Virus genome (UHGV): UHGV-0201380 | Source of the DNA: a virus | DNA length: 43,652 nt | Direction: 5' to 3' (one strand) | Shown: positions 1-43,652 of the stretch, piece after piece | Numbering within the stretch: position 1 is the stretch's first letter | Layout: each line of letters begins with the position of its first letter | Made by a program: the position numbers and the translations under genes | Notes under the pieces: model-generated | Databases searched by the model: none | Told to the model about the DNA's origin: nothing | Seen by the model: only the letters and a program-made list of their open reading frames with translations

Positions 1-72
1 ATGCTGCATACCGCGGGTCTATCGGCTCAGGCCCCAGGTCCATCAACTCCACAACACTGCCAGACTTTATAC

Positions 73-2490
73 TCATTCTACCTTCTCCTTACTGTACATA
101 CTCGTACCCATCTCAGCCTCTGCTGGGAACGGGACCTCACCAATGATGCCGTAGTTAGGCCAGAGCTGGTGAATACGCTTAGGTGCATCCTCCATGCACT
201 GCTTAACCAGCAGGCTCGCCTCACGTCCAACCTCCGGGTTGGCGCTGTCCAGATACAACGCATCGTGCACGTTCGTAATCAGGCACACCTGATTGTCGAA
301 CCAGTCACGGGCCAGGAGTGCACGCAGAACCATACCGGCGGCTACCGCCATCAGGAAGAATGCTTCCCCCTGGCACCAGTAGTTAGCCATCTCTGTTTCC
401 TTGTAGTCCATTACCTTCTGCTTACGCTGCCCAGGCACAACCTCTTTCCACTGCTCTTTCTGACGGAAACTGTAGCGGGCACCGGCTGGGCTGGTCCACG
501 TCCCAATGCGGTAGATTCGGTAGCTGCCGTCGTCAGCCTGCTCCCGGTACATGCGCCCCTCCGCACCGGTACGTTCTACCTCTTCCTTGACAACAGCGCG
601 GAAGCCAATTGTTTGCGGGAACAGCGCAGCCTCGTTGTCCAAGAAAGCCTGTGCAAATTCCACCGTACATCCAGTAGCAAACGCAATCCCCTTAGCCGTA
701 GCGCCATACTGGGCTGCAAAGCTAGGAGCCTTAATACCTGTACGCATTGCCTTCCAAAGCGGATGCAGCTCGTGCTTCTTGTTGTGGCAGCGCTCATATA
801 CTTCTTCATACGGTAATCCCTCGCGGAAAGCTAGGCGGTAACAGTGCATATCCGTACCACTCTGCAGCAGTCCCAGCAGTTTCTTGTCACCCGTGTGTAC
901 ACAGGACATAACCACTTCCAGTGCCGAGTAGTCAACCTCAGTGATACGTCCGTTGTCCCCGAATCTACTGGTGAACACCTGCTTCACCTTGGATTTAGCC
1001 ACACCGTCGCCATCCTCATCCGGGCGGGGTAGGTTCTGCAGGTTCGGGTTAGAGCTACTCAAGCGCCCGGTTACGGTGGCGCAAGTATTCAGCCGGTGGT
1101 GAATGATGCCGGAACCATCGGGACGCTCCGGGATTACATACTGCAGCATCCCCTTCCGCTCTTTTACATTACCTCCTGCGTCCAGTACTTCTCGCAAATA
1201 GTAAGTGCCGGTATCCTTCTCCAGCGCCGCCAGTTCGTTCACCAACTTACAGAACTCGAACCCTTGGCGAGCCAGCGCCTCCATTGCATCAGTGCTGGTG
1301 CTATACACAGGGGTGCCATCCTGCAGGGTGCGCGCCTGTCGGAACTCCCCGCGCTCTGCGTACTTCTCCCGGATAACTTCCGGAAGCTCCTGGATGTTCA
1401 CTAGGCCCGGGCAGAAGTAAAGGTCGTCTTCCCATTTAAGTTTCTCTTCCTCGGTATCGAGGCGGAATACTTTAGGGAGCCCCTTGTTCTTACCCGCACG
1501 ATATGTCACTACACGCCACCATCCGCCTTCCGTTTGAAGTTCTTGCATGTGCGTGTCGTGTACAGGTATATAGGTGTGCGCACCATCTTCGTCCTCGTAC
1601 TTATAGTAGTCGGCCTTGACGTACTGCGGAGGGTCATAGGGGACCTTCTTGCGGTACTTTATAGGCCCGCCGTACACCAGTGCAGACATATGAAAGTCCG
1701 ACCCGAAATTGAAGTCCAGCGTCTCCGGCAAGTCCTTCGGGATGTACTGCTGCAGTTCCTGCTTAATCTCACGGATGCGCTGCTCCTGCTCCTCCTGGTT
1801 CTTGCGTGCAATTGGCATATTCACGAACAGGCCGAACCACTCGCAGTACGCCCAAGCTAGCAAGGCATCCATACGTTCCCACACGTACTGCATCTGATTG
1901 CGCTGGGCGAACGTAGCGCACTGGCCGTAGAAGCACAGGGCCGTGTTCGGGATGTCCCCGTTAACCAGGTAGTCATGCAGCAGTATCGGGTCGATCTGGG
2001 AGGTTAACACACCCTGCTCCCATAGAATCTTAACCCCGTCTACTTTGTGCGTACCACCGTACTTAGGAGCCGTCTCGTCCAGAGACGGATACATGCTCTG
2101 AAAGTCCGAGGCGATGTATTCCCCGTGCATTGTGCAGAACACCCTGCCACCGCGCTTGAGGAAGGCCTCAAACTGCTGCCGCTGGTACGTGAGAAACCAA
2201 GAAATCTCATAGGCTGCGTTGTGCGCAACAATAAGCCAGCAATCCTCGGGGATATGAAACCACCGGCAGCCTTCTGCTGCACTGTTTCCCGCCAAGAAAT
2301 CAGCTCTTGAATTGAAGCGCACCGATTGAGTCGCGCCAACAGTGGTAGTACCGTCAGCCTGTGTCGTGTCGATACGCCATGCGGACTCAACAACATAGTT
2401 GTCAGGGCAGTATGGGCTTGCTTTAGAGCCGTAATATTCATGGTTCTCCGTCTCCAGGTCAAGGTGCATTATGCTGGTTGTCATTTCCAC
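73..2490 (-). CDS. Family A DNA polymerase (T7 gp5-like) with N-terminal 3'-5' exonuclease domain
   Basis: 805-aa track ORF. N-terminal MHLDLETEN resembles the exonuclease DxE motif; C-terminal VHDALYLD resembles Pol A motif C. Track start codon is GTG; an ATG two codons in (about 2484) follows a GGAGGG Shine-Dalgarno and is the likelier start. Position after primase and helicase matches phiKMV-like synteny. Confidence 0.9.
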   Translation of the reverse strand: MEMTTSIMHLDLETENHEYYGSKASPYCPDNYVVESAWRIDTTQADGTTTVGATQSVRFNSRADFLAGNSAAEGCRWFHIPEDCWLIVAHNAAYEISWFLTYQRQQFEAFLKRGGRVFCTMHGEYIASDFQSMYPSLDETAPKYGGTHKVDGVKILWEQGVLTSQIDPILLHDYLVNGDIPNTALCFYGQCATFAQRNQMQYVWERMDALLAWAYCEWFGLFVNMPIARKNQEEQEQRIREIKQELQQYIPKDLPETLDFNFGSDFHMSALVYGGPIKYRKKVPYDPPQYVKADYYKYEDEDGAHTYIPVHDTHMQELQTEGGWWRVVTYRAGKNKGLPKVFRLDTEEEKLKWEDDLYFCPGLVNIQELPEVIREKYAERGEFRQARTLQDGTPVYSTSTDAMEALARQGFEFCKLVNELAALEKDTGTYYLREVLDAGGNVKERKGMLQYVIPERPDGSGIIHHRLNTCATVTGRLSSSNPNLQNLPRPDEDGDGVAKSKVKQVFTSRFGDNGRITEVDYSALEVVMSCVHTGDKKLLGLLQSGTDMHCYRLAFREGLPYEEVYERCHNKKHELHPLWKAMRTGIKAPSFAAQYGATAKGIAFATGCTVEFAQAFLDNEAALFPQTIGFRAVVKEEVERTGAEGRMYREQADDGSYRIYRIGTWTSPAGARYSFRQKEQWKEVVPGQRKQKVMDYKETEMANYWCQGEAFFLMAVAAGMVLRALLARDWFDNQVCLITNVHDALYLDSANPEVGREASLLVKQCMEDAPKRIHQLWPNYGIIGEVPFPAEAEMGTSMYSKEKVE

Positions 2491-2688
2491 TTAGCCCTCC
2501 GAGCTTTATTGATAGCTAGATGCACAATCAGCTGGCTGCTGTCCAGCGCGAATCGTTTACGGAAAGTACCTGCAGACGCAGCGTACGCCTTGATTACCTC
2601 TTCGTCGAGGTAGTTAATGTCTGACGGTTTAAGCATAGTAGCCTCCTAGTGTACCTACATAGCGCCCTCATAGAAGGCGCTAGGGAAG

Positions 2689-3969
2689 TCACCGGTTAAT
2701 CTGGCCCTCGTCAAAGCGGCAACGACCCGGCTCGAATCCCACCTCGAATTGCAGTAGCGACTCTTTACCAGACAGTGCCATCTTGTTCTTCGGAGTACTG
2801 ATACCACGGACGTTTTGCATGTGCGGCTGCTCGTTCCTGTCCAAGCATCCCATCATAATCGCCAAGTCCAAGGCACCCTGTACACCAATCTTGCTCTGCT
2901 TCATAGCGGTGAGCGGCGGGAACAACATGTTGTAACCTTCGAGTGAAAGCTGCATAGTCCCTACGATAGCGCAGTCGTTCTCGCACCCAAGGATGCGCAG
3001 CTCCTGCCATTTCGCCTCTAGGTTCTGGTGCTCACTCTCCATAGTACCGCCACGGATATTCGCCACCATATCAATGATGATTACCGCGGGGCGCATCTCC
3101 TCCATGAGCGTGGATATCTGCGCCATCGTCAAGGAGTGCGCAGCCTTAACGCGAATCCGGTCAGCCCTGCCTACTTTCTTGAGGTAGGCTGGCACGAACT
3201 CTTGCTTACTGTGCCGGTCCTTAATCTCCGCCAGAGTCCAGTGCAGCGCCGCTTGATATACCCTCGGCACTGTACGCGTCGCCGGACCCTCGTTAACCAG
3301 CCAGAGAATCGGGCGGTCCCCGTATACTTCCGGCTGCTGCTGCATCTGCTCAGCAAAGTCCACAGCAATAGCAGCAAGCAGGCTAGTTTTACCAGAGTCC
3401 ACAGGAGCAGCCACTGCGATGCAGTCCCCGCCACGTAGACCTCGGATGTTGCTAGCGAGTTGCTCGAACACGCCCAGTTTAAGACCGCCGCTCTCATCAG
3501 TCGCGGCAAGTATCTCGTCAACACTACCGCTCTCCCATTCAAGCAGCGAATCATGCACCGCAGCGCCATCACCGTACTTGCGCTGTAGGTGCTTCATTTC
3601 CAGCAGGTAATCAATCTCCTCGCCGTCTTGATAGCGCTGCGTCAGCGCTGCTACCTCCCCGCTGTAGGCCAGCTCGTTCAGGGTCTGGACAATCCCCACC
3701 ACAGAATCCTGTGGCACGGCTTGTACTCCCCGCATAAGCTCGTCCATGATTACCCGCTCTTCCCGGGACAGGTGCCCCGCCCGGAGGTTTAGCATGCTCT
3801 GCATTGCATCCCACTGAACCTCCTGGTGCTCCGGGTACGTGTTCCAGTACAACCCCACCCAGTCTAGTAGGTTAGCTGTGTCCGGCGCTAGCATGGATTT
3901 GGGTATCTGTTCACGCAGTCGGTTCCATACCTTCTGCGTGCACATTGCCTTAACTACTATTAGGTCCAA
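2689..3969 (-). CDS. DnaB-like replicative DNA helicase (T7 gp4 helicase-domain homolog), encoded separately from primase
   Basis: 426-aa ORF. Walker A AAPVDSGKTSLL and Walker B-like PAVIIIDMV. Start is TTG, preceded by a strong AAGGAGG Shine-Dalgarno 5 nt upstream. Confidence 0.85.
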   Translation of the reverse strand: MDLIVVKAMCTQKVWNRLREQIPKSMLAPDTANLLDWVGLYWNTYPEHQEVQWDAMQSMLNLRAGHLSREERVIMDELMRGVQAVPQDSVVGIVQTLNELAYSGEVAALTQRYQDGEEIDYLLEMKHLQRKYGDGAAVHDSLLEWESGSVDEILAATDESGGLKLGVFEQLASNIRGLRGGDCIAVAAPVDSGKTSLLAAIAVDFAEQMQQQPEVYGDRPILWLVNEGPATRTVPRVYQAALHWTLAEIKDRHSKQEFVPAYLKKVGRADRIRVKAAHSLTMAQISTLMEEMRPAVIIIDMVANIRGGTMESEHQNLEAKWQELRILGCENDCAIVGTMQLSLEGYNMLFPPLTAMKQSKIGVQGALDLAIMMGCLDRNEQPHMQNVRGISTPKNKMALSGKESLLQFEVGFEPGRCRFDEGQINR

Positions 3970-4164
3970 TTAAACCTCCTTAGGAACACAGATTGCTTTA
4001 GCGGTATACACCCTGAATGTGTCAAACTTCTCTTCGAACGCCTTGGCCGCCTTGTTGCAGGCGGCCCCCGTTGTGAACTCTTGAGTGGTTAGCGCAGCGA
4101 AGTCTGTGTCGCTAACCGCACTGCCATTAATCGCCATGATTAAAACCCAGATACCCATACTCAT
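3970..4164 (-). CDS. Hypothetical small protein with hydrophobic N-terminus, translationally coupled between primase and helicase
   Basis: 64-aa ORF. N-terminal MSMGIWVLIMAINGSAVS looks like a signal peptide or TM segment. Its start overlaps the primase stop and its stop abuts the helicase start. Confidence 0.45.
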   Translation of the reverse strand: MSMGIWVLIMAINGSAVSDTDFAALTTQEFTTGAACNKAAKAFEEKFDTFRVYTAKAICVPKEV

Positions 4165-4946
4165 TGTAAAGCCTCCAGAATCTCTTTGATTTCTGCATCC
4201 TTCGGGTCCGCAGCGAAGTAATGCTCACGGCACTGCATGAACGGACGCAGTGCTCGGCGCGCCGCTGCTACCCCAGCATGTCCAGCCGGGTCATTATCCA
4301 GCATCAGAATCACTTCCGGGCGATTCTGAATCAGCCAAGCCCTCAGCGGCGTGGGCAAGCGTGTACCCAGCATAGCTATAGCCTGCACGTTCAATGCACT
4401 GTAACTCGTAACTGCGTGCTGTATCTTCCGGGCTGAGAGTAAGTCCTCGGTGAGCACGACCTTTAGAGGCGCGGCCGCAGCTACAGCCGGTGCTACGGCA
4501 GGTGCCGCGACAGCGAAAGCTATTGGCTGGCCGTACATTACCCACTTCGGTTGCTGCCGAGCATGCACTGCACGGCCCAGAGCAGCGCTTCCGACACGGA
4601 AGATTATCCGCTGTTTCTCTTTGCTCCATTCTGCATCCTCCACCATTTCAGGCATGATTCCCTTTGTGGTCAGGAATCCGTAAATAAAACTCTGCGTTTC
4701 CGCAGGCGCTTGGCTAATGCAAATTGCATCTGCAGGTGCAGCGGGCTGCACCCTCGGCTCTTCCTGTAACTGTATGCGCTGGTACTGCTTGTGCTCCTTG
4801 CCCACCTGTTTGCAGCGGTGGCAATAATATTCCCAGGCATCCGGGTTATTGTAGAGCACCCCGGCGGCGTCCCTGCCGCAGCACCGAAAGCGCGCCCTCT
4901 GCCCAACGGCCAGGCGCTTGCACGCTCTAAGCCAGGGCTGGTCCAT
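4161..4946 (-). CDS. DNA primase (zinc-ribbon plus TOPRIM domain)
   Basis: 261 aa. Cys-rich N-terminus (RFRCCGRD ... YYCHRCKQ) consistent with a zinc ribbon; ILMLDNDPAGHAG matches the TOPRIM DxD motif. ATG overlaps the stop of the upstream ORF by 1 nt. Confidence 0.75.
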   Translation of the reverse strand: MDQPWLRACKRLAVGQRARFRCCGRDAAGVLYNNPDAWEYYCHRCKQVGKEHKQYQRIQLQEEPRVQPAAPADAICISQAPAETQSFIYGFLTTKGIMPEMVEDAEWSKEKQRIIFRVGSAALGRAVHARQQPKWVMYGQPIAFAVAAPAVAPAVAAAAPLKVVLTEDLLSARKIQHAVTSYSALNVQAIAMLGTRLPTPLRAWLIQNRPEVILMLDNDPAGHAGVAAARRALRPFMQCREHYFAADPKDAEIKEILEALQ

Positions 4947-5398
4947 TACTGAATCTCTCGCTTAACTTTCATAGCCATTCGACGAATGTCATGTGCCAAC
5001 TGCAGGGCTGAATCGGGGCTCATATTAATACCAATCTCTCGCTCTGCCCGGGTGCTGCCTTTTCTAGGCACTATTCCGATGTATAGTAGTCCTTCGTTAG
5101 TCTCGCTGTCCTTTTCTAATACCAGCCGCTGGTCGTTTCCTGGGTCTCGTTTAGTGTTTAAATATGCTACACTAGACGGAACCGGTGGCAGCTCGTCCGC
5201 CTCCTCGATTAGCTGCCAGAAGTCGGCAGAGCCGCCATAGATATCCCCGGCATAATGAATCCCTGCGCCTTCGGTTAGCTTGATGTCTATATAGAGGCCA
5301 GGCCCCTTAGTGACTATCTCGCCGCGCACGGTCTTACCTTCAATCTTATTGATGCGCTGAACCTTATCACCTACTTTAAAAAGTTTAGACATAATCAA
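4946..5398 (-). CDS. Hypothetical protein
   Basis: 150-aa ORF tightly packed between the peptidase-like gene and primase, with 4-nt overlaps at both ends. No motif recognised. Confidence 0.5.
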   Translation of the reverse strand: MIMSKLFKVGDKVQRINKIEGKTVRGEIVTKGPGLYIDIKLTEGAGIHYAGDIYGGSADFWQLIEEADELPPVPSSVAYLNTKRDPGNDQRLVLEKDSETNEGLLYIGIVPRKGSTRAEREIGINMSPDSALQLAHDIRRMAMKVKREIQ

Positions 5399-6456
5399 CC
5401 CTCCACAATATTATCGTATCCGCCCCAGTCTTCTACGACTCGGGTGCCTAGTTCAATCAGTTCTTCTTTAAAGCCGTAATCGGAGAACACCATTATGTAC
5501 TCCGCCGCCTTCTCTGGATTCTCCTGTACCCAGCTAACCAGTTGTTGTTTAGAAAGCTGCGATACTTCCCGGAACGCGGCCAGTAACTGCGGGTCCTCGT
5601 CCGGCGGCATATCCCACGGCTGCCGTAAACTGAGCGTCGATGCAGCGAGCCACTGGCATAGGTCTGGCTCTGCTACTGCCGGGTCCCGCTCAATAGGGAG
5701 GTGCGAGAACGTGCCGTCTTGTAGTACCCGCTCAAGCACCTGGCCCAGTATGTTCAGGTCCAGCACCTCATCCGGGGTGTGCTCGTGCATGTACCCTACA
5801 CCGACGTTGGTGCACTCAGGAATGATGCCAACGAACTCAGCCGAGTCAGTATAAACACCCTTCTGCAAGTGCTGCTCCGTGCGTCCCAGGCGCTCTGCTA
5901 GGGTCTTGGCAAAGGTGTCAGAGCAGCAGCGCATATACCTTTGATGCGTAATGATACCGTCGCCGCGGCGGTCGAAGCTAATCATCGCCTTGACCCCAGT
6001 CCAAAATCCAGAGTCATCCTTGACCGATGCAGCGCTACCCTCGCAGCCTACCTCTTCATCCACGAAGAAGCAGTAGCGTCCGTGCACGCCGCGCCGCAGC
6101 ATCTCCAGCATCAGGTAGATACCGGCGCCGCAGTCGGCGCCCAAGCAGTCAGCTTGTTGCGGATTCTTTACGAACAGCACGCCCTTGTTAGTGCAGCCGA
6201 CGTCCGGCGCAGCGCTGGTTGGTCGTGCCACTGTGTCGAGATGAGACGTAAACGCTACGTCACTTTGCTCTGAGTCCCCCACCAGCACGAAGTAGTTCCC
6301 GTGCTTGTCCTTTACGTAGTGCATACCACTACCCAGCGCCTGTAGCGACTGCATAAGCAGCGGCTCGAACCACTTAGTGCTACCCCAGCTAGGCCGGTGC
6401 GTTTGCAGTATCTGCAAGAGCAGCTGCATATCAATCCCGTGCGGATTCAAGAACAT
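5395..6456 (-). CDS. Predicted dinuclear-zinc peptidase-fold protein (M20/M28/M42-like motif pattern)
   Basis: 353 aa. Ordered motifs SHLDTV (HxD), GADCGAG (D), VDEEVGCEG (EE), GYMHEHTPDE (H) match the metal-ligand pattern of M20/M28/M42 peptidases. ATG is preceded by GAGGAGG and overlaps the stop of the upstream acidic protein. Function inferred from motif pattern only. Confidence 0.55.
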   Translation of the reverse strand: MFLNPHGIDMQLLLQILQTHRPSWGSTKWFEPLLMQSLQALGSGMHYVKDKHGNYFVLVGDSEQSDVAFTSHLDTVARPTSAAPDVGCTNKGVLFVKNPQQADCLGADCGAGIYLMLEMLRRGVHGRYCFFVDEEVGCEGSAASVKDDSGFWTGVKAMISFDRRGDGIITHQRYMRCCSDTFAKTLAERLGRTEQHLQKGVYTDSAEFVGIIPECTNVGVGYMHEHTPDEVLDLNILGQVLERVLQDGTFSHLPIERDPAVAEPDLCQWLAASTLSLRQPWDMPPDEDPQLLAAFREVSQLSKQQLVSWVQENPEKAAEYIMVFSDYGFKEELIELGTRVVEDWGGYDNIVEG

Positions 6457-8138
6457 TAAGCTGCCTCCTCTGCTTCTTCTTCATCTTCATCGTTGCCCAG
6501 GTACTTCTCTCCCAAGCAATCAGCTGCATGCTCAGTGAGAATTAACCCGTGCACTGGGTGTTCTTCTGCGTGCTCAATAAGCACTTGCCGGTCCTGTGCA
6601 AACACCAGTTCCTCTTGGTCGTGCACTACACCCTCTACTTCGCAGCGCTCTATGTCCTCGTCGTATACATAGGCGTCGTGGTAATCAGACCAGGTGCAGC
6701 TCCAGCGATTATGCAGACCATCACGCCCAACTACGTACACAAAATCCCCTTCTTCTACGCAGCCGTCGCAGACCATATCACCATCTGCGGTCTCCTGCAT
6801 GTCATCTACAGAGTAGCGACATTCACAGCAGCAGCACCGAGCAGACTCAGTGCCTACGTAGATGTATCCTTCTGAGTCTTGTGCCTCGTACTCATAAGCA
6901 TCACGGATTACAAAGGCATCATCCCCATACTCATCTACGCCGCACTGGCTGCTATCTAGGTATGGCATCAGCACTGCGCCGTTGTATGTTGGGTGCGGTA
7001 TTCGCGCCAGCATTACCCCTTCGAGACATTCAATGTTTTTGGTGTACCCATGCCCCCGCAGGATTGCATCCGCAGCGTTGCCGTAAGCGCGGACGTACTC
7101 GTTAGTTTCTGTGTTAACGATTGCCCGTGCCTGCACTTCGAAATCGTCGCCGAACAGCTCCCCGGTGTACTGGATGAACAGGCGCAGCCCATTATCCGGC
7201 AACCCGTGGCTGGTGGTAGCGTACGTCCGCACAGAGCTATGCTCAAATGAGTACCCGCTCATGCAGCTACCCGGGCCATTCTCGTAGGCGTCGTACCATT
7301 CCTGCTCGGTCTTGCACAGGTACGTTGTAGGGTCTACGTTCATAGCCTTGAGGTCTTCGATAGCATCGCGGAAGTCCACACCATTTCCGTAGTAGTTAGC
7401 GAGCCACTTACCTACGCGCATCTCTACGCAGCGGTACTCAGTAACTGCTGCGAAGTCCTTGTGCATCCGCGGCTGCCCCAGCATCACGATAGGTTCGCCG
7501 TTGCGGAAACCAAAGCCCAAAGGCACGGCGAATCTAGACACTACGAAGCCGTGCAACTTCATGAGCAGCGCAGCTAAGTTGCCATCGCGGGTGTGGCGGC
7601 CGTAATCGTAGCCAGTGTATAAGCGGCGCTGCTGCTCTTCTGGTGCAAGCATGATGCGCTCAAATAACTGCACGGCCTGCTTGTGCACCTTGTAACCTGT
7701 GAATTCTTCGACGCAAGCAACTACGCGCTCAACCACTACATCCTCGCCCTCATAGAAGTCGCGGCGGCGTTCCCAGAACTTGCTGTCTATGGTGATTCGC
7801 ACCGGTTCAAAGAGTTCGCAGAAAGTTCCGGACCGGTACAGGTCCACCTTTTGCAACGGGCCGAGCGTCATCGTTGATTCGCGATACTCTGGGTGCAGTG
7901 CCCCGCCTATAGTCACCTCTAAGCCTGGAGTGTGCGCACTGACAGTGCGGAGACCCATAAGCACCTGCAGCGGACCCTCAGTGTGGGGATGGTCCTCCCC
8001 TTGCATTTGCAAGTCCTGGAACGGGGTCCAGTAATCACCGCTGGAATACATTGATTCTTTAATCGGCAGTGCGTTTGCACCTTCCGGTAACACTACTTTC
8101 CATTCGATAGGTGCTGTGTTAGTTTCTTGCATTTTCAT
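6456..8138 (-). CDS. Large early/middle protein of unknown function with Cys cluster and polyacidic C-terminal tail
   Basis: Track ORF is 6456..8426 (656 aa), but its 5' end overlaps the upstream 114-aa gene. ATG codons at about 8138 and 8132 follow a GGGAG Shine-Dalgarno, giving about 560 aa. Contains CCCCECRYSVDDMQETADGDMVCDGC and ends DEDEEEAEEAA. Confidence 0.6.
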   Translation of the reverse strand: MKMQETNTAPIEWKVVLPEGANALPIKESMYSSGDYWTPFQDLQMQGEDHPHTEGPLQVLMGLRTVSAHTPGLEVTIGGALHPEYRESTMTLGPLQKVDLYRSGTFCELFEPVRITIDSKFWERRRDFYEGEDVVVERVVACVEEFTGYKVHKQAVQLFERIMLAPEEQQRRLYTGYDYGRHTRDGNLAALLMKLHGFVVSRFAVPLGFGFRNGEPIVMLGQPRMHKDFAAVTEYRCVEMRVGKWLANYYGNGVDFRDAIEDLKAMNVDPTTYLCKTEQEWYDAYENGPGSCMSGYSFEHSSVRTYATTSHGLPDNGLRLFIQYTGELFGDDFEVQARAIVNTETNEYVRAYGNAADAILRGHGYTKNIECLEGVMLARIPHPTYNGAVLMPYLDSSQCGVDEYGDDAFVIRDAYEYEAQDSEGYIYVGTESARCCCCECRYSVDDMQETADGDMVCDGCVEEGDFVYVVGRDGLHNRWSCTWSDYHDAYVYDEDIERCEVEGVVHDQEELVFAQDRQVLIEHAEEHPVHGLILTEHAADCLGEKYLGNDEDEEEAEEAA

Positions 8139-8178
8139 TTGCTCCCGAGTTAATAGAACTTCGTCATGCACTAAGAGT

Positions 8179-8523
8179 TCAGCGTGCGTACCACGCGGAG
8201 AGTTGTTGCTGCTTATAATAGGCGCGGACTGCGGCTCTAAATTGCTTAAAAGCTCCGCGGTATCCATTCCGCCGTAGTGCTGCAACCACATCGAATGCAA
8301 TGTGCTCTTGCAGCTTCCGCGCGGCAGACTCAGTGTACTCTCGATAGGTTGTGAGAACAGTGCCAATATCCTCTTTTCTAACTCGGAGTAATCGACGCTC
8401 AACTGGCACGATTTGCTTGAGTTCATTAGGAACCTCTTTGAATGTTTCCCAAGTGCAACCGCACTTGCCCTGCGTTTCCAGCAGACGCCAGCACAGCAGC
8501 GCTGTTTCGTCTACTGTGAGCAT
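8179..8523 (-). CDS. Hypothetical early protein
   Basis: 114-aa ORF; ATG preceded by AAGGA with about 6-nt spacing. No recognisable domain. Confidence 0.55.
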   Translation of the reverse strand: MLTVDETALLCWRLLETQGKCGCTWETFKEVPNELKQIVPVERRLLRVRKEDIGTVLTTYREYTESAARKLQEHIAFDVVAALRRNGYRGAFKQFRAAVRAYYKQQQLSAWYAR

Positions 8524-9404: not shown

Positions 9405-9418
9405 ACGCCAGTTGCATT

Positions 9419-34518: not shown

Positions 34519-34526
34519 TAAATTTT

Positions 34527-36995
34527 TTAGCAGAAGAAGAACGGGGATTCTAGCACTTGCCGGATGTCCAAAGTGCCCACTTCCGGCATGTCCAGGTCCG
34601 TCAAGTCTGCCCCGGCTGCTGCTGCTGCGCGAGTAATGTCGCCAAGCAGGTCATTCTCTTCATACAGGCGCACAAACTGCTCACGGATGTGCCTATGCAT
34701 AGCGTCAACGTCAGCTGCGTGAGTAGCCAGCGAGTCGTGAATAGGCACAATATCCAGACCCTCCGCAGCGCAGAGCACCATCATCAAGTGCGTACTGTCC
34801 AGGCTATGCACAAAGTTCGGGGCAATCCCGGAGGCTGCCTTGCGCTTGTTGCAAGTTTTGAAGTCCCGGTTGTGTACCAGTACCGCTGATAGGTTCATGC
34901 AGTCAATACGTACGCGCACTTCTTCACGCTGCGTGTAGCGGTTCATTACGAGCCCACCCAGCGGCGTATACCACTGCAGATGCTGGCTTGCCGGTACACG
35001 CCTAGCGAGGTTCTGCAAGTACCCCATAACTGCGGCTGCGGCTGGGTTTGCCTCCTCGATAGCAGTGCGCATACGCGGAGCCAGGTAGCATGACAAGTTC
35101 CACAGACTGTTAGTCTCAGTACCCTCGTACCCCTCAGCGCAAGCGCCTTCGAAGATGTAGTCGCTGCAGCTGCGCACAGTGGCGCTGTAGAAGTAGGTCA
35201 TACTAGGGCGCTTGGTCATGCTGCGGGTGATTTCGTTCTCTCTCCAGTACGTGCTCTGGATAACGAAATCCTCCTTGTCCAGGTCCAGTATCACCTTCTC
35301 GTCCGTACGGCGCTTCACGTCCATGTACAGGTCCGCTTTCTTATCATTACCCTCCCAGTACAGGTTCGTCAAGCGTCCGCCCACAGGGTCTCTCAGGAGC
35401 GCTGAGAGATGCTGTCCACCTGAGTTTGTAGCGTCCATAGCAACTGGGATTCGGCTAATATGCTCTTCTGGGCATCCAGAACGAACCGCATTAACCAAGT
35501 CGATAGCGGCGGCCAGCAGGCACCAGGGGCTATCCGCAGAGGAAAAAGCAGGGGCATCAAGAGGAGAATCCGCGAGCCTCTCAATCTCTGCATAGTTCGC
35601 ATCAACCCAAGCTGCACGGTCTTCGAATAGGGTTTTGTCATAACCAAAGCAAGTGGCGACGTGCACTTTAAGCCAGAAAAGTCCGCGCTCTCCCAGAGGC
35701 TTGCCACGTCCGAATTCAAGAAGGGCTTTCTGCAAATCAGAACCTTGGGGATGCAGCGAGGACTTGAAGTACAGGCGGTAGCGCCAGTCCACACAAGTCG
35801 GGAAGTACAGGGCTTTCTCATCTTTGAATTCCTCCGCCATTTCCAGCGTGGTCAACAGGCTGCGTAGTTGTGACACACGCTTACGGTCTGCGCTGTACCA
35901 TAGGGACATGCGCGTCTTCCACTCACCGAAGCGGTCCAGTTCTTCTTCGGTGTAGTTCTCTTTTGGTACTCCATCCAAGTACCACTCCGGTTTAGGCTCT
36001 GGTACTGAGCGGGGCATGCCCACCCCAATACCCAGGGCCCGTGCTTCTTGCACCAGTTCCAGTATGCGCTTATTAATACGGTATGGGGTTTCCTGCGCCT
36101 TATTAAGCGCCTTTTTGATGCCGTCCGCGGACTTGAATGCTTCTGCTACTTCACGGAGTCGCGCGCGGTCGATGTGCGAGTTGTGATAGGTCCCGCGATT
36201 GTCGATGGGGGTAAGGTACCCGCCATCCCACATAGTGGTGTGCTGTACCGGTGGCACCAGCATAGGCGGCTTCATGGTTACGGTATCAGCGGACTCTACC
36301 AGTTTCTGGAAGGCCTCCATAACATCGTCAGCCGGGTAGAGCATGCTCAGGTTCCCACTACAGTTCTTCCATTGGAACAGGCCAGTCTCAAACACCGCGG
36401 CACATAGCAGCCGACCTACTGAGATATTCTGGGAGTTGGTCCATGGCTCGTGCCCATAGTGCACGTTCTCAGCACTGGCCCGCAGCGTACGCAGGATGTG
36501 CGTGGGAGACTTGGTCTTACGCTCCGTAAGGTACTCGTACACACGGTCCATGTACGCCGGAGCCACGTTGCGTAACTGCAGGGCCAGCAGTTCCGATTGT
36601 ACGTTCCGGCCCAGCGCGGACATTACCGCCTGTGCAGTCTGGCGGCGGCTAGCGGACTCGCCAGGAGCTACGCTAAATGCCTCAAACATTGTGCATAGGC
36701 TCAGGGTGGTCAGGACATCCAAGGGGACTAAGCGCAGGAACCGGCGGTACTTACCGCCAATGCCCGGGGCTTTTACATTTCGCATCTCATCGATAGCGGC
36801 GGCGGCCACCTCATATGCCGAGGTGAGCATACGCTGCGTCATCGGCAGGTTCATAATCCCACCGTTCTGCAATGCGTCCGTAATCAGCTTACGTGCCCGC
36901 TCGATTCCGCGAATCTTATAGGTCTCTTCAAGCTCCAGCTGGCGTTTCACCAGTGCTTCCTCTGGTACTACAACCGTATTCAGGGCGCTAATCAT
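34527..36995 (-). CDS. Single-subunit DNA-directed RNA polymerase (T7 RNAP family), located next to the structural module
   Basis: 822 aa. Motif A-like PVAMDATNSGGQH, motif B-like RSMTKRPSMTYFYSAT, motif C-like PIHDSLATHAAD. AAGGAGA Shine-Dalgarno. Placement directly upstream of portal is the phiKMV-like hallmark. Confidence 0.95.
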   Translation of the reverse strand: MISALNTVVVPEEALVKRQLELEETYKIRGIERARKLITDALQNGGIMNLPMTQRMLTSAYEVAAAAIDEMRNVKAPGIGGKYRRFLRLVPLDVLTTLSLCTMFEAFSVAPGESASRRQTAQAVMSALGRNVQSELLALQLRNVAPAYMDRVYEYLTERKTKSPTHILRTLRASAENVHYGHEPWTNSQNISVGRLLCAAVFETGLFQWKNCSGNLSMLYPADDVMEAFQKLVESADTVTMKPPMLVPPVQHTTMWDGGYLTPIDNRGTYHNSHIDRARLREVAEAFKSADGIKKALNKAQETPYRINKRILELVQEARALGIGVGMPRSVPEPKPEWYLDGVPKENYTEEELDRFGEWKTRMSLWYSADRKRVSQLRSLLTTLEMAEEFKDEKALYFPTCVDWRYRLYFKSSLHPQGSDLQKALLEFGRGKPLGERGLFWLKVHVATCFGYDKTLFEDRAAWVDANYAEIERLADSPLDAPAFSSADSPWCLLAAAIDLVNAVRSGCPEEHISRIPVAMDATNSGGQHLSALLRDPVGGRLTNLYWEGNDKKADLYMDVKRRTDEKVILDLDKEDFVIQSTYWRENEITRSMTKRPSMTYFYSATVRSCSDYIFEGACAEGYEGTETNSLWNLSCYLAPRMRTAIEEANPAAAAVMGYLQNLARRVPASQHLQWYTPLGGLVMNRYTQREEVRVRIDCMNLSAVLVHNRDFKTCNKRKAASGIAPNFVHSLDSTHLMMVLCAAEGLDIVPIHDSLATHAADVDAMHRHIREQFVRLYEENDLLGDITRAAAAAGADLTDLDMPEVGTLDIRQVLESPFFFC

Positions 36996-37136: not shown

Positions 37137-37592
37137 TCACTTGGCGTCAATGCACTTACCTCTGTGTTGCTCGTATAGTTCTGAGTACTTGTCGGACTTG
37201 GCAATGTCTTGTTCCAGCTTATCCTTGTTCCCGGCGCGCAGTCTGTACTTGAGCCGGTTCCCCAGGCAGTATCCGTAGAACTGCTCTTTCGTCATACTGC
37301 GTGCAATCACCTCAATTGCCTCCAGGTCCGGGAAGAACTGGTAGTGCTTGGGTGAGTTCACTGCGTCGGGCGCTTGTGTGCTGGTTATGGGGACTTCCCC
37401 CACTACATGGAAGTAGTCCGCGCGCCAACCGCCAGCTAGGTCTCCGCTTAGTGTAATTGTGGTGCCACTAACCTCAAGCACCCCCCTGGAGGCGTATGGG
37501 GAGATATGAAGAGACTCGCAGATTCGAGACCAGTCACCCGACACGTGCGTAGCTTTACGAACTACCACATCACCAACTTTAATATTACTCAT
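37137..37592 (-). CDS. Hypothetical protein, DUF3310-like conserved T7-group protein
   Basis: 151 aa; C-terminal region NSPKHYQF ... EAIEVIA ... GNRLKYRLRAGNK resembles the DUF3310 pattern. Start overlaps the endonuclease VII stop (ATGA). Confidence 0.55.
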   Translation of the reverse strand: MSNIKVGDVVVRKATHVSGDWSRICESLHISPYASRGVLEVSGTTITLSGDLAGGWRADYFHVVGEVPITSTQAPDAVNSPKHYQFFPDLEAIEVIARSMTKEQFYGYCLGNRLKYRLRAGNKDKLEQDIAKSDKYSELYEQHRGKCIDAK

Positions 37593-38032
37593 TTAATAGT
37601 CTCCCGTGCTTTACGTCGTGCCCGGGCCTTGCGGGCCTTGAGCTTCTGTGCCTGCGCCAATTCTTCCGGCGTCTTGTGCGTATAGTATAGCATATCCGTA
37701 GGTTCGCGGTCTAAGTAATCGGCGACCCTACGTAGAGATTCAGCAATAGCCCCAGAAGATTGCATGCTACCAACAATCCAGCGCCCAGCGGCAGATGCCA
37801 CTTTGCCTTCCCCTCCATTGCACGAGCGATGAAGAGCACCCCGAATACGCCCAGTAATATGATCGTGGTCAACGACAACAGAATCACCAGTTACCCCCTT
37901 GATTGTGAAGTCCAAAGGTTTGCCACAAAGGAGGCAGATACCTCCCTGGTCTTTGGCAAGCTTAATTGCCACGGAGCGAATCTGTGCCCGTGTAATCTTC
38001 CGCAGACTCATACGTATATGAACCCCCACCAT
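37589..38032 (-). CDS. Endonuclease VII-type Holliday junction resolvase
   Basis: 147 aa with CLLCGKPLD ... VVDHDHITGRIRGALHRSCNGGEGK (zinc-binding and DHDH motifs of the T4 endo VII family); basic C-terminal tail. Confidence 0.85.
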   Translation of the reverse strand: MVGVHIRMSLRKITRAQIRSVAIKLAKDQGGICLLCGKPLDFTIKGVTGDSVVVDHDHITGRIRGALHRSCNGGEGKVASAAGRWIVGSMQSSGAIAESLRRVADYLDREPTDMLYYTHKTPEELAQAQKLKARKARARRKARETIK

Positions 38033-38180: not shown

Positions 38181-38381
38181 CTAACATAGTTCAATCTCCC
38201 CCACTACATCCAGCAGAGCATTGTCGTGAATGAGAGAATCCAAATGCTCAACCGTTCTTCGATGTGTTTTGGGTGCTCGTTCACGCAGCGCAACCAGAAT
38301 AGTTTCAAGTTCATCATGTTTCCCCTCGTAGTATAACTCAATCGCCCGCAGGCTCATTTCCTTCGCAGACATCTTCGCCAT
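38181..38381 (-). CDS. Hypothetical small protein
   Basis: Track ORF 38181..38450 overlaps the exonuclease 3' end. An internal ATG at about 38381 (MAKMSAKEM...) follows AGGAG, giving about 66 aa. Confidence 0.4.
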   Translation of the reverse strand: MAKMSAKEMSLRAIELYYEGKHDELETILVALRERAPKTHRRTVEHLDSLIHDNALLDVVGEIELC

Positions 38382-39306
38382 TGTCTGGGTGCTCCTGTAT
38401 CCACTGTATATGCTGTTTATGGTACTCGTGCAGCGAATGCACCCAGTCACGCAGACTGGGAGTAGTCAACAGTGACATCAGATACAGGTACGCTGAATCT
38501 GACGGGGAGCGCCGCAGGAACAGGCATTCTGCCTCTGCGAGTACATCTTGGTTGTTTCGAGCGTAAGCCGCTACAACGAATTCTGCGGCGTCCTGCTCTG
38601 AGGTAATAGGGTAGATAGCATCAAAGGCCGTTCGCTTCCCACAGAGCTTCCCATCAAGCAATGTGATGCCTTTGACGTTATCTGCGTCATCTCCTGCTAG
38701 CATCTGCCACCAGAAGAACTTAGTGCCATGCGCTCGTACCGGCATAGCCTGGGTATCATCCCACTTAATCCATCCGAAGGGGTTATCCAAGGCAGGCCAT
38801 ACGGTTCCGGTTGGGATATCGAACCGGGCCATAGGGCTGAGCCAGGAGTCCTTGTCCTGAGACATCAGGATTCCACGGTCCCCGAAGCTGTACGAATCCA
38901 TTATGAACAGGTCATCCGCCTCGAAGTAGTCACTGCTTACCACTTGTATGCCATGCTCAGAATACTGGTCCGGGTTCTCAATCAGGTGCCGCTTCAACGG
39001 TGCCTTGAGTGGCAGCTCCTGACGCTTATTGCGGTTCCCTTGGTACGGCTTAGCCGTAGGCAGGTGCCAGCGCAGGCACTTAGCACACCCCGTAGGCGTC
39101 AGATACGCCACTGCTTCTGAGCAGCCGACCAGGAACATGTCCTCAAGCACCAGCTGATAGAAGCGGCGTATCGCGGTATCCAAACGTTTCACTGTAGCAG
39201 CAGATTTATAAACTGTGAAATCCGCGTCGTACAGCAGAATCTTCCCAGAGTTCTGCGGAGCTAACTGCTCCCCGAGCTGGGACAAGTCAACCCCGTTGAT
39301 AATCAT
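38338..39306 (-). CDS. 5'-3' exonuclease (FEN-like, T7 gp6-like)
   Basis: 322 aa, with LLYDADFTVYKS near the N-terminus and GDDADNVKGI later, a pattern typical of 5'-3' exonuclease/FEN family proteins. Confidence 0.85.
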   Translation of the reverse strand: MIINGVDLSQLGEQLAPQNSGKILLYDADFTVYKSAATVKRLDTAIRRFYQLVLEDMFLVGCSEAVAYLTPTGCAKCLRWHLPTAKPYQGNRNKRQELPLKAPLKRHLIENPDQYSEHGIQVVSSDYFEADDLFIMDSYSFGDRGILMSQDKDSWLSPMARFDIPTGTVWPALDNPFGWIKWDDTQAMPVRAHGTKFFWWQMLAGDDADNVKGITLLDGKLCGKRTAFDAIYPITSEQDAAEFVVAAYARNNQDVLAEAECLFLRRSPSDSAYLYLMSLLTTPSLRDWVHSLHEYHKQHIQWIQEHPDNGEDVCEGNEPAGD

Positions 39307-41402: not shown

Positions 41403-41972
41403 TTAAATGATATTTACGTGCAGATGCAGGGCTATGCGTTTGCACAGTCCTACGAAGTCATCGTGGTGCATGTCAGACTTCATATAGTTGCAGGTAGGGC
41501 AGCATGGCACACAGTTGTCTAAATGGTACCCAATGCGTGAATCCTTCCGGTCTATCCCGTTAGTGGGTACTGTGGATTTACGCGCCCATCTCCCACTGCC
41601 GAGTTCCCGGTAGGTACTGGGTGGCGCGCCGCAGTAATAACAATCTGCGCTTACTAAGGCCTTGGCGTCTTCCTTAGTAATACTCCTACCTAACTTAGTG
41701 CTAAAGGCCCATACCTTATTCGCCGATACTGTTAAGTCGTCCAGCTTATTAGGCGGAGTTCGTCCAGTATTCTTCTCACTTTGCCTGAGTTTAGTTTGAC
41801 ATCCGCAGTGACCAAGGCCGCCGCGCTTACTGGTATTGAATAGCTTAGTGCGTATCGCCTCAAACTCCTCGCCACAGTAAGGGCAGTCCCAGGTATAAAC
41901 AACCATACCGCGGAATCTCTTTCCTGTATCAGTCTTTGGTTTTATCTCTTGCACACCACCTTCCGGAATCAT
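41403..41972 (-). CDS. Zinc-finger protein with degenerate HNH-like nuclease motif
   Basis: Track ORF starts at TTG 41975, with an ATG at about 41972; an alternative ATG at about 41906 avoids overlap with the phosphoesterase gene. CPYCGEEF and HCGCQ Cys pairs; C-terminal NGIDRKDSRIGYHLDNCVPCCPTCNYMK resembles an HNH core with His replaced. Confidence 0.45.
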   Translation of the reverse strand: MIPEGGVQEIKPKTDTGKRFRGMVVYTWDCPYCGEEFEAIRTKLFNTSKRGGLGHCGCQTKLRQSEKNTGRTPPNKLDDLTVSANKVWAFSTKLGRSITKEDAKALVSADCYYCGAPPSTYRELGSGRWARKSTVPTNGIDRKDSRIGYHLDNCVPCCPTCNYMKSDMHHDDFVGLCKRIALHLHVNII

Positions 41973-42918
41973 CAAGCAGCATCGGGATTAACTGCGGACA
42001 GCCCTCGGTGATTACCATCACACCCAGGATTGGTTTCTTGCGGGTGAGTCTGCCGTAAGCAAAGGCCATGCTCTTACGGTCAATCAGACACCCAGCATAC
42101 GCACCAAAGTACAAAGCTGTTGAGCTAGCTGCATATTGCACCTCAAAGCGACCATGTTCGTGACCAAGGACAAGGCTGGTTCTTTCGTGGCTAGCGTTGA
42201 GCATGAAGTCACCCGACACTTGATGCTGGAATCTAACCGGGCCAAGTGGGGTATTGAGTACCCATGCGTCAGCCCAAGACCACGCCGGGGCACCATGCTC
42301 AGGGAAAAGTATATCTCGGTACTTCTTGATGAATTGCACTGGTAGCCCGTGAGCTTTCGCCCTGCGGTAAACCAGACTGCCGTGATTGGAATCGCAAACC
42401 AGTAGGTTCGGGAATAGTTCATGCAGCTCCTCCAGTACGAGCTTGGCTTTCTCCAGCTCCACCCCGGCGCTATCTAGGTTCGGGTTACTTTCGTGGAATG
42501 ATATAGCGTGGCCGTCCGTCTCGTCGCCTACCTGTACAACCATGTCCGGACAGTAGGCGTCTCGCACAGATTCTAAGAAGGCCATAGCATCTACGTGCGT
42601 ATAGGGGGCATGCAAATCCCCAACTACGAGAATACGGTGGCACACTTCCGGCACGAAGGTTTTGCCGATGTCATCAGTGGGACTGGGCTGTATGAGCTTT
42701 AGTGCCTCCTTCATGTGGGATATTGCCTTACCCTTGCTCCCAGCGTGGTCTAGGAATATGCTGCGCCAGTACTTCACCATCTGTCGATACACCACTGGCT
42801 CGTCCAGTCCCGCCAGATTATTATAGGCGGCAGCAGCATCCACGTTAGAGCTGTGCTTGCTCAAGATATCTATGTGTTGCTCTTTGGTGAATAGCTTTAT
42901 TGTGTTTAACTTAGGCAT
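41929..42918 (-). CDS. Calcineurin-like metallophosphoesterase (Ser/Thr protein phosphatase / phosphodiesterase superfamily)
   Basis: 329 aa with the ordered motifs VVGDLHAPY (GDxH), VQVGDETDGH (GDxxD), CDSNHGS (GNH[DE]-like) and LGHEHGRF (GH-x-H). Substrate cannot be assigned. Confidence 0.8.
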   Translation of the reverse strand: MPKLNTIKLFTKEQHIDILSKHSSNVDAAAAYNNLAGLDEPVVYRQMVKYWRSIFLDHAGSKGKAISHMKEALKLIQPSPTDDIGKTFVPEVCHRILVVGDLHAPYTHVDAMAFLESVRDAYCPDMVVQVGDETDGHAISFHESNPNLDSAGVELEKAKLVLEELHELFPNLLVCDSNHGSLVYRRAKAHGLPVQFIKKYRDILFPEHGAPAWSWADAWVLNTPLGPVRFQHQVSGDFMLNASHERTSLVLGHEHGRFEVQYAASSTALYFGAYAGCLIDRKSMAFAYGRLTRKKPILGVMVITEGCPQLIPMLLDDSGRWCARDKTKD

Positions 42919-43345
42919 TCCAGCTCCTGTTACTTATTACGTCACTAATTACATGTACACCTACACCGTACTTATTAGCAAAGTGTTGCCGCATACCTTT
43001 CTTGTATGGGATATAGTTATCCCTGATATCCTGCACAGCATCCCAAGTTAACTGCGCTTTTGGGTTCCTATCCCCACGCACATCTGGGTTCCTTCCGCGC
43101 TCTGCACGGTCCCGCATATTATCCATATGCGTTCCCAATACTAAGTGCTTAGGGTTAATGCACCTGGGGTTATCGCAGGTATGTCTAACAGACAGGCCAG
43201 CCAGCGCCCTTATATCCAGCCCGTTATGCTCAGCATACACCACCCGATGCAGCAGCTCCAATCGCCTGGTCGGCTTATACCATGCCCGGCGGTATCCGTT
43301 CTTGTTAAGGCATTTGTTATACCCGTGGTCAATACACATCGACAT
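42911..43345 (-). CDS. HNH homing endonuclease
   Basis: 144 aa with HRVVYAEHNG ... HTCDNPRCINPKHLVLGTHMDNM. Overlaps the phosphoesterase start by 8 nt. Confidence 0.85.
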   Translation of the reverse strand: MSMCIDHGYNKCLNKNGYRRAWYKPTRRLELLHRVVYAEHNGLDIRALAGLSVRHTCDNPRCINPKHLVLGTHMDNMRDRAERGRNPDVRGDRNPKAQLTWDAVQDIRDNYIPYKKGMRQHFANKYGVGVHVISDVISNRSWNA

Positions 43346-43506
43346 TCGGTATCCTCTTGTGTTGTTCCTACTCGTATCACATTAATTCTCTGTGAATCAC
43401 AGAATCAAGCTAGAGTCAACAAATAATTTTATTTAATTATTTAGTTGACCCCAGTGTATTTCCATGCTACCCTAACCCCCTACACCACCCAAGGGTCCAC
43501 CTATCA

Positions 43507-43652
43507 CTATTCCACGATAAGCTTGTACTCCCCCGGGAAGAAGGTAACACCATCCCCCGGTCTACTTACTACTAGTCCAGGATAACTTAGTTCTATCTCC
43601 CCAGTAACCGGGTCGAAGAACATGACCGTGTGCCTCGTACCCGGGGCGAAGT
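43507..43652 (-). CDS. 3' portion of a small ORF truncated at the window edge (continues at 1..43 if the sequence is circular)
   Basis: The minus-strand frame is open from the window end to a TAG at about 43507. The same frame continues through the revcomp of positions 1..72 to an ATG at about 43..41 (GGAG upstream), giving a 65-aa ORF directly downstream of the DNA polymerase stop. Confidence 0.3.
   Translation of the reverse strand, partial: FAPGTRHTVMFFDPVTGEIELSYPGLVVSRPGDGVTFFPGEYKLIVE

Follow-up and report, generated by a model that had tools for sequence, protein, structure and literature searches.

A KP34-like phage genome from the human gut, very probably complete and assembled with its terminal repeat collapsed

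The layout of phiKMV (genus Phikmvvirus, subfamily Krylovirinae), with all genes on one strand, direct terminal repeats and an RNA polymerase (RNAP) gene that ends the DNA-metabolism block and adjoins the structural genes, resembles that of the 43,652-nt stretch of DNA analysed here (the window), where the repeats are predicted. The lysis cassette of phiKMV is ordered differently from the spanin, holin and endolysin of the KP34 group, and phiKMV belongs to another subfamily and has another host (Pseudomonas) than the phage described below. KP34, the type of the KP34-like or Drulisvirus group, is likened to the window here by its promoters; its strong promoter S2 has been defined experimentally at nt 475-490 and a second copy of its strong promoter S1 lies ~11.5 kb past the first (PMC6834552), and its tailspike is K63-specific according to a review (PMC11652154). 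Blunt direct terminal repeats of 222 bp were determined experimentally in another Drulisvirus, fHe-Kpn01 (PMC7291057). KpV71 (Drulisvirus KpV71, NC_031246) encodes an experimentally validated K1 depolymerase, gp52 (KpV71_52), and NTUH-K2044-K1-1 (Drulisvirus K244) is the source of the K1 lyase structure 7W1C.

Relatives and genome layout

Over 280 phage records, most of them from Klebsiella, matched the window by megablast at 90-96% nucleotide identity; only 2 of the 287 matches were Pseudomonas records, and the relatives among these matches are complete lytic phage genomes of 42.6-45 kb. Intergenomic similarity to Drulisvirus genomes was 78-88% for the 8 genomes scored in full. When compared with the ICTV cut-offs (genome-wide nucleotide similarity of 70% or more for a genus and intergenomic similarity of 95% or more for a species), the values for KpV71 (84.1%), NTUH-K2044-K1-1 (81.3%) and NER40 (80.0%), all Drulisvirus in their records, lie above the genus line, and the best value among the 8 genomes, 87.6% for RCIP0106 (OR532900), the phage-collection record closest to the window, lies under the species line. 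No record in that collection reached 95% identity over window positions 1-22000. The family trait of Autographiviridae, a single-subunit T7-type RNAP of the phage's own, is present (36995..34527, 822 aa), and so is the placing of all genes on one strand; of a third trait, a linear genome with short direct terminal repeats, the window has a single copy of a segment homologous to the repeats of relatives. By its sequence the phage falls in genus Drulisvirus, subfamily Slopekvirinae, family Autographiviridae, and is most likely virulent, and its relatives point to Klebsiella as the host genus. An earlier sequence-only reading had called the genome phiKMV-like, which holds for the KP34/phiKMV type of podophage and is narrowed here to KP34-like Drulisvirus of Slopekvirinae, not phiKMV proper. 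The phage is ordinary and well explained, and nothing in it conflicts with the current understanding of the KP34 group.

Gene order was identical to that of KpV71, and ORFs on the minus strand correspond, in the same order, to 48 of its 53 proteins (Table 1). All the homology-supported ORFs lie on that strand, and GC skew on the plus strand was negative in 41 of 43 1-kb windows. On the plus strand, the four longest ORFs, of 254-307 aa, had no Pfam or PHROG match and were taken to be antisense artefacts of a genome with 54% GC. These results bear out what had been claimed from the letters alone, that every credible gene is on the minus strand and that, read with a wrap, the order runs from early genes through primase, helicase, polymerase, exonuclease, endonuclease VII, RNAP, portal, structural genes, terminases and lysis genes to the tailspike; the closest relatives have the same order. 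Pfam matches support the RNAP, T7-type terminase (Terminase-T7_RNaseH-like, DNA_Packaging_2), portal, DNA polymerase, helicase, primase, endonuclease VII and lysozyme. The RNAP had been placed next to the portal: the block order is as claimed, with small ORFs of 146 and 88 aa in between. As is typical of Drulisvirus, the RNAP closes the DNA-metabolism block just ahead of the structural module, the portal lying at 33788..32193. Another trait of the genus, a spanin-holin-endolysin cassette between terminase and tailspike, is also present, and the spanin (15960..15556), holin (15563..15312) and endolysin (15328..14720) are each 95-99% identical to KpV71 proteins. AttikonH4 and the RCIP records label the spanin as u-spanin, and KpV71 labels it as Rz-like.

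The window differs from KpV71 in having two additional HNH ORFs, namely the 138-aa ORF and the HNH/endonuclease VII-like ORF, both absent from KpV71, and a 115-aa accessory ORF. The early region of KpV71 is largely unrelated to the window at ~10.2-11.5 kb, and its gp11 is annotated as 557 aa against a 656-aa ORF here. The accessory ORF occurs at this site in only 17 related records, and its counterpart in RCIP0106 is 98% identical. The exact product of the 153-aa HNH gene was not on record in public contigs. A tRNA scan of the window found none. An Rfam scan at gathering thresholds gave no match either, so that nothing points to group I introns even though the window has four HNH ORFs.

Table 1. 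Features of the window, with predicted elements marked as such (RNAP, RNA polymerase)
Feature	Position	Strand	Support
DNA polymerase, family A	73..2490	-	99% identical to KpV71 gp19; Pfam DNA_pol_A
Junction ORF (73 aa), 5' part	1..76	-	ATG overlaps polymerase stop codon (ATGA)
Junction ORF (73 aa), 3' part	43507..43652	-	contiguous at 100% identity in public contig
DnaB-like helicase	2689..3969	-	99% identical to KpV71 gp17; Pfam DnaB_C, AAA_25
DNA primase (Toprim)	4161..4946	-	98% identical to KpV71 gp14; Pfam Toprim_2
Peptidase	5395..6456	-	96% identical to KpV71 gp12
Large early protein (656 aa)	6456..8426	-	90% identical to KpV71 gp11
Small early genes	8179..10366	-	homologues of KpV71 gp03-gp10
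Best sigma-70-like host promoter candidate, TTGACA-17-TAGATT	10786..10814	-	consensus match; upstream of early genes
HNH endonuclease ORF (138 aa), early region	10967..11383	-	Pfam HNH_3 E=1.8e-7; phrog_7545
Terminator-like hairpin after 138-aa HNH ORF	11008..10989	-	scan
KP34 RNAP strong promoter S2, TGATGTTACAGGAGTA	11578..11593	-	exact match to KP34 S2
Predicted direct terminal repeat, single copy	11864..12172	-	~309 bp, 66% GC; aligned to relatives' repeats
HNH endonuclease (153 aa), last gene before right end	12206..12667	-	Pfam HNH_3 E=3.9e-22; 86% identical to KpV71 gp53
Tailspike, predicted K1 capsule lyase (651 aa)	12764..14719	-	7W1C match; Pfam; 96% identical to KpV71 gp52
Lysis cassette (spanin, holin, endolysin)	14720..15960	-	Pfam Phage_lysozyme; KpV71 homology
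Terminase small and large subunits, T7 type	16528..18686	-	97-98% identical to KpV71 gp46, gp47
Tail fiber/tailspike adaptor	18699..19655	-	92% identical to KpV71 gp45
Internal virion (ejectosome) proteins A, B, C	19657..26695	-	90-98% identical to KpV71 gp42-44
KP34 strong promoter S1, second copy	22597..22612	-	exact; inside internal virion protein C gene
Tail tubular proteins A and B	26697..29702	-	97% identical to KpV71 gp40, gp41
Accessory ORF (115 aa) between capsid and tail genes	29715..30062	-	phrog_6703, phrog_25669, neither with assigned function
Major capsid protein	30291..31310	-	95% identical to KpV71 gp38
Scaffolding protein	31336..32178	-	91% identical to KpV71 gp37
Portal, T7 gp8-type head-tail connector	32193..33788	-	Pfam Head-tail_con
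KP34 strong promoter S1, TAATGTTACAGGAGTA	34505..34520	-	exact; begins 7 nt after RNAP stop
KP34 weak promoter	34555..34574	-	1 mismatch; within 3' end of RNAP gene
T7-type single-subunit RNAP	34527..36995	-	Pfam RNA_pol E=6.6e-90, RPOL_N; 96% identical to KpV71 gp33
Endonuclease VII	37589..38032	-	Pfam Endonuclease_7; 99% identical to KpV71 gp30
5'-3' exonuclease	38338..39306	-	94% identical to KpV71 gp28
HNH/endonuclease VII-like ORF (~183-190 aa)	41403..41975	-	phrog_1035 E=1.5e-26
Metallophosphoesterase	41929..42918	-	97% identical to KpV71 gp22
HNH endonuclease (144 aa)	42911..43345	-	Pfam HNH_3; 90% identical to KpV71 gp21

Closure of the window and its assembly

The KpV71 genome runs continuously across the junction of the window ends, its positions 8438-12593 corresponding to window 4158-3 and 12596-14281 to window 43652-41969. 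Similarly, a contig from a human-gut metagenome (SRR413609 k127_30252) was 100% identical over 12,435 bp spanning the junction and, in another segment, over window 8764-18719, where the terminus region lies mid-contig. This contig measures 43,779 bp, the window length of 43,652 with a k-mer overlap of 127 bp added. The window ends themselves showed no terminal overlap save one chance 12-mer in common. The small ORF split by the junction (76..1 with 43652..43507) matches KpV71 gp20 along its whole length at 92% identity; a frame continuous across the junction had been noticed before, and its length is 73 aa and not 65 as then given. The seamless passage of both KpV71 and the public contig over the junction agrees with the earlier claim of a complete genome at an arbitrary rotation. 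The circle, from a human gut metagenome, was most likely opened inside this small gene, just downstream of the polymerase gene, and is given here in reverse complement.

That the window might instead be a linear piece of a larger replicon, a prophage or plasmid, whose closure is coincidental, has an almost negligible probability and is effectively refuted already. The identical contig is continuous over the junction at the size expected from the k-mer overlap, and at both window edges it continues into phage DNA and not into bacterial genes; no unaccounted ORF of at least 35 aa was present as an integrase, repressor or partition gene, tRNA and Rfam matches were likewise absent, and the relatives are complete lytic phage genomes of similar size.

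The uneven similarity to RCIP0106, with 96% identity at 96% coverage over window 22001-43652 against 94% identity at only 75% coverage over 1-22000, could be read as the mark of a chimeric assembly of at least two co-occurring Drulisviruses, the more so as the source is a metagenome and not an isolate and gut metagenomes commonly contain related phages, the 144-aa HNH protein being indexed in 83 blocks. The genes, however, are all intact and collinear, the exact tailspike is present on 4 contigs of 20-50 kb, and mosaicism is normal in Drulisvirus, where deposited genomes differ in many accessory HNH and small genes, and a chimera was considered very unlikely. We are highly confident that the window represents a complete, non-redundant genome of a KP34-like podophage, obtained as a circular metagenome assembly that was opened arbitrarily and in which a terminal repeat of ~309 bp was collapsed.

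Predicted virion ends

KpV71, AttikonH4 and NER40 have exact direct terminal repeats of 246, 297 and 255 bp, respectively, and these aligned to window 12172..~11864 with both boundaries conserved. The window segment is ~60 bp longer than the KpV71 repeat; repeats among the relatives measure 222-297 bp. The predicted left virion end is at window 12172, where the sequence begins CCTCACCCTCAACG, and the predicted right end, at ~11864-11866, closes with TAGGGGTGCGCTC and is uncertain by a few bases because the annotated boundaries of the relatives vary by 1-3 nt. The ends had been expected near 11.4-12.2 kb, and both predicted positions fall within that bracket. The window contains one copy of the repeat-homologous segment, which therefore appears to have been collapsed in assembly, as had also been proposed; the sequence would close on itself because the assembler merged the two copies. 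The duplication of the repeat in virions and the exact end nucleotides are predicted here from the relatives.

Closure of the window without a duplicated end would also suit a genome that is truly circularly permuted and terminally redundant, packaged by the headful with neither fixed ends nor a defined repeat. Against this, the terminase is of the T7 type, the exact repeats of three close relatives place both boundaries at the same window positions, and blunt 222-bp direct terminal repeats are known experimentally in a Drulisvirus, which leaves headful packaging a highly improbable account. Most likely, the virion DNA is linear, its blunt ends are fixed and its direct terminal repeat measures ~309 bp, which would give a packaged genome of ~43.96 kb, and by homology with KP34 and T7 the T7-type terminase would cut concatemers at the repeat boundaries. 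It was noticed that the short motifs GCTATCC, CCTAGTGC and CACTAG are dense in and just inside the terminal repeat. More tentatively, these motifs and the S2 promoter, which lies ~580 nt from the left end, may have a role in concatemer processing. Such a role has been proposed for T7. Phages with direct terminal repeats are often assembled, artefactually, into circles with an arbitrary opening, and the window illustrates this; re-orienting the contig to start at 12172 on the minus strand, with a second copy of ~309 bp appended at the right end, would allow correct annotation and comparison.

Promoters, tailspike and host range

The search for KP34-type promoters gave 4 matches against 0.02 expected by chance, with three exact copies of T(A/G)ATGTTACAGGAGTA at homologous positions, as expected of a Drulisvirus. 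The S1 and S2 sequences of KP34 are exact in the window and its weak promoter is one base off, at homologous positions (PMC6834552); S2 stands 580 nt from the predicted left end, and the two S1 copies are spaced by 11.9 kb. Both S1 promoters of KpV71 are likewise exact to KP34, whereas the site at its S2 position has 1 mismatch. The counts of sigma-70 promoters and terminators between 8 and 13 kb were not above those of shuffled sequences, and the best sigma-70-like site is a weak lead. By homology with KP34 and T7, the early genes would be transcribed by the host RNAP from the left end, and the phage RNAP would next use the KP34-type strong promoters near the left end, behind its own gene and in the gene for internal virion protein C. 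We infer such promoter use from the conserved sites.

The tailspike matched the K1 lyase of NTUH-K2044-K1-1 (PDB 7W1C) from end to end (phmmer, 1425.8 bits, residues 1-651), and the catalytic residues Tyr311, His373 and Arg397 are all conserved. It has Pfam matches to K1-lyase_N, K1-lyase_Rider and K1-lyase_C, and its close KpV71 homologue is the validated depolymerase gp52. The predicted K1 specificity differs from the K63 specificity of the KP34 tailspike. From the 96% identity to KpV71 gp52 we infer that the tailspike would degrade the K1 capsule and permit infection of K1 strains, and a K1-specific lyase would limit the hosts of the phage to K1 Klebsiella pneumoniae. Being probably K1-specific and coming from the human gut, the phage may be of interest for phage therapy and depolymerase work.

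The evidence leans, by a modest measure, towards an uncultured Drulisvirus of the human gut that is new at the species level and has a K1-lyase module in common with KpV71 and NTUH-K2044-K1-1 on another genomic backbone. If so, hypervirulent K1 Klebsiella would be its natural host in the gut, and the receptor module would have been swapped between species.

Closure of the circular assembly

When the window was aligned with Klebsiella phage KpV71 (NC_031246), KpV71 8438–12593 corresponded to window 4158–3 and KpV71 12596–14281 to window 43652–41969, so that the reference crosses the end-to-start join with zero bases missing or duplicated. The reading frame that the sequence-only reading had placed across this junction is continuous, but it encodes 73 aa and not 65 (window 76..1, then 43652..43507); its start ATG shares bases with the stop codon of the DNA polymerase gene, and its product is 92% identical to KpV71 gp20 over the full length. 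Using the 144-aa HNH protein that adjoins the window edge, we found the public human gut metagenome contig SRR413609.k127_30252 (ENA ERZ917445), in which 12,435 bp across the junction are 100.000% identical to the window; in this slice, 1–5693 equals window 5693–1 and 5694–12435 equals window 43652–36911. This identity is the decisive test of window closure. A second locus of the contig was 100% identical to window 8764–18719. The contig is 43,779 bp long, exactly 43,652 + 127, the 127-bp overlap being the signature of circular k=127 assembly, and is opened elsewhere (contig coordinate = window coordinate + 24,348). Thus, the window contains the whole of the unique sequence from a circular assembly, arbitrarily rotated and already public as a metagenome contig, and the gene order wraps across its ends as had been proposed. 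Neither edge has a bacterial flank, as the identical contig carries on as phage. This circular contig and the lack of any unassigned large ORF rule out that the window was cut from a larger replicon. A chimeric metagenome assembly, to which the unequal similarity of the two window halves to the nearest record might point, is highly improbable, as every gene is intact and four ~44-kb contigs carry the identical tailspike.

The “complete genomes” of BUCT-H1 (PP882722) and GBH001 (OU509534) have exact end overlaps of 127 and 55 bp, respectively. These are typical assembler k-mer sizes and not biological terminal repeats, so both records are probably untrimmed circular assemblies with arbitrary opening points.

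Gene content and taxonomic placement

The ORF survey of the whole window showed the minus strand tiled end to end by sizeable ORFs, and the plus-strand GC skew was negative in 41 of 43 1-kb windows. Megablast of the two window halves against 50,697 phage records returned 285–287 matching records, mostly Klebsiella phages with 80–96% identity and the usual T7-supergroup gene annotation. The annotation was carried over by protein comparison from KpV71 (Autographiviridae, Slopekvirinae, Drulisvirus), 48 of whose 53 proteins were matched, in unchanged order, by minus-strand ORFs (85–99% identity for most). Independent of this transfer, Pfam verified the core functions on the minus strand, namely a family A DNA polymerase, T7-type single-subunit RNAP (RNA_pol with E=6.6e-90, and RPOL_N), T7-type terminase nuclease domain, T7 gp8-type portal, Toprim primase, DnaB-like helicase, endonuclease VII and phage lysozyme. 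On the plus strand, the four longest ORFs (254–307 aa) had zero Pfam or PHROG matches, and therefore the claim that all credible genes lie on the minus strand holds. RNAP had been placed next to the portal; the two are close, with two small genes between them. Scans of the window found no tRNAs and no Rfam families.

The KpV71 RNAP (NC_031246 18566–21034) is labelled “N4-like RNA polymerase” in RefSeq, a misleading product name because the 96%-identical window protein is T7-type by Pfam. A 656-aa ORF (8426..6456, minus) overlaps the 114-aa gp10 homologue (8523..8179) by ~250 nt in a different frame, and its counterparts are annotated inconsistently (557 aa in KpV71; 655 aa in NTUH-K2044-K1-1 and AttikonH4).

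VIRIDIC-style similarity, computed against eight genomes, was 87.6% for RCIP0106, 86.2% for RCIP0044, 84.1% for both KpV71 and GBH001, 81.3% for NTUH-K2044-K1-1, 80.7% for BUCT-H1, 80.0% for NER40 and 77.8% for AttikonH4. No record among the 50,697 had at least 95% identity over window 1–22000. With cut-offs of >70% for genus and 95% for species, these values assign the phage to genus Drulisvirus, under the species line for the collection searched (eight genomes scored in full). The proposed phiKMV-like affinity is refined to KP34-like, not phiKMV proper. Apart from such small corrections, the earlier sequence-only observation is confirmed and its reading is supported. Record OQ503491.1 (“Acinetobacter phage vB_AbaA_LLY”, labelled Acinetobacter baumannii) covers 81% of window 1–22000 at 90.5% identity; it is a typical Klebsiella-type Drulisvirus, so its host label appears doubtful.

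Predicted physical ends and promoters

The records of three relatives, KpV71, AttikonH4 and NER40, contain exact direct terminal repeats of 246, 297 and 255 bp, respectively. Window 12172 is where the left ends of all three align (minus-strand sequence CCTCACCCTCAACG), and about 11867–11864 is where their repeat ends align (...TAGGGGTGCGCTC); the unique sequence CCTTGCTTATTTTG comes next in minus-strand reading. Both predicted ends fall inside the 11.4–12.2 kb bracket suggested earlier. The ~309-bp repeat-homologous stretch (66% GC against 54% overall) is single copy in the window and sits mid-contig in SRR413609.k127_30252. Experiments on fHe-Kpn01, of the same genus, demonstrated direct terminal repeats that are blunt and 222 bp long (PhageTerm, restriction digestion, ligation and Sanger sequencing; PMC7291057). 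Together with the T7-type terminase, these findings make it most likely that the virion genome is linear, ~43.96 kb, with a ~309-bp direct terminal repeat, whose duplication in the virion we infer; the assembler would have collapsed the two copies to one. With this terminase type and the repeat boundaries conserved among relatives, permuted ends from headful packaging are unlikely.

Within window 11450–12172 (minus), covering the terminal repeat and ~400 nt inside it, the motifs GCTATC/CTATCC, CCTAGTGC, CACTAG and TGCGCT are enriched 15–50x, and a 30-nt imperfect tandem pair lies at 11788–11852. This cluster recalls the short repeat arrays adjoining the T7 terminal repeat.

Four copies of a 19-nt family were picked up in a search for repeats, and three of them match exactly the strong promoters defined experimentally for the KP34 RNAP (PMC6834552); the strong-promoter pattern gave 4 matches against 0.02 expected by chance. 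In KP34, S2 lies at nt 475–490, S1 directly behind the RNAP gene, and the two S1 copies are 11.5 kb apart (PMC6834552). The matching places in the window support both the family assignment and the left-end placement. The HNH gene at 43345 has, immediately upstream, a degenerate fourth copy of the strong-promoter motif (TAATGTGATACGAGTAGG, 43384..43367, minus, 3 mismatches).

Promoters, tailspike and accessory ORFs of the window
Feature	Coordinates	Strand	Remarks
S2 TGATGTTACAGGAGTA	11593..11578	minus	exact KP34 match; 580 nt from predicted left end
S1 TAATGTTACAGGAGTA	34520..34505	minus	exact KP34 match; starts 7 nt past RNAP stop codon
S1, second copy	22612..22597	minus	exact KP34 match; 11.9 kb after first S1
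KP34 weak promoter	34574..34555	minus	one mismatch; inside RNAP gene
Tailspike	14719..12764	minus	651 aa
Free-standing HNH-type endonuclease ORF	43345..42911	minus	144 aa
Free-standing HNH-type endonuclease ORF	41975..41403	minus	without KpV71 counterpart
Free-standing HNH-type endonuclease ORF	12667..12206	minus	
Free-standing HNH-type endonuclease ORF	11383..10967	minus	without KpV71 counterpart
Accessory ORF	30062..29715	minus	115 aa; between small post-capsid ORF and tail tubular protein A

Tailspike and accessory genes

The tailspike matched PDB 7W1C, the K1 lyase structure from phage NTUH-K2044-K1-1, over its full length (1425.8 bits), as well as the Pfam K1-lyase N, Rider and C families. 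It retains Tyr311, His373 and Arg397, the catalytic residues of the K1 lyase (PMC11652154), and shares 96% identity with KpV71 gp52, whose K1 depolymerase activity has been validated by experiment. The tailspike is predicted to be K1-specific.

Compared with KpV71, the early region of the window is divergent, two HNH ORFs are extra, and an additional ORF of 115 aa stands between capsid and tail genes; these differences are of the usual accessory kind, and the phage is an ordinary, well understood object. The 115-aa ORF occurs at the same site in only 17 related records, has distant homologues (30–48% identity) in SP6-like and Proteus phages such as K1E gp10, and matches ~230-aa PHROG families of unassigned function in their C-terminal half only. 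Despite the four HNH ORFs, the Rfam scan found no intron-like RNA in the window.

One carrier of the exact 144-aa HNH protein (ENA ERZ8158337 NODE_266) is 51,778 bp, larger than any genome of this group, and may reflect concatemer read-through or misassembly. In all, this protein was found in 83 blocks of public collections, mostly on ~44-kb contigs, several from human gut metagenomes; Drulisviruses thus seem common in human gut metagenomes. The HNH gene sets and their sites vary among relatives, AttikonH4 for instance having six annotated HNH genes; this variation suggests that homing-endonuclease turnover is active in Drulisvirus.
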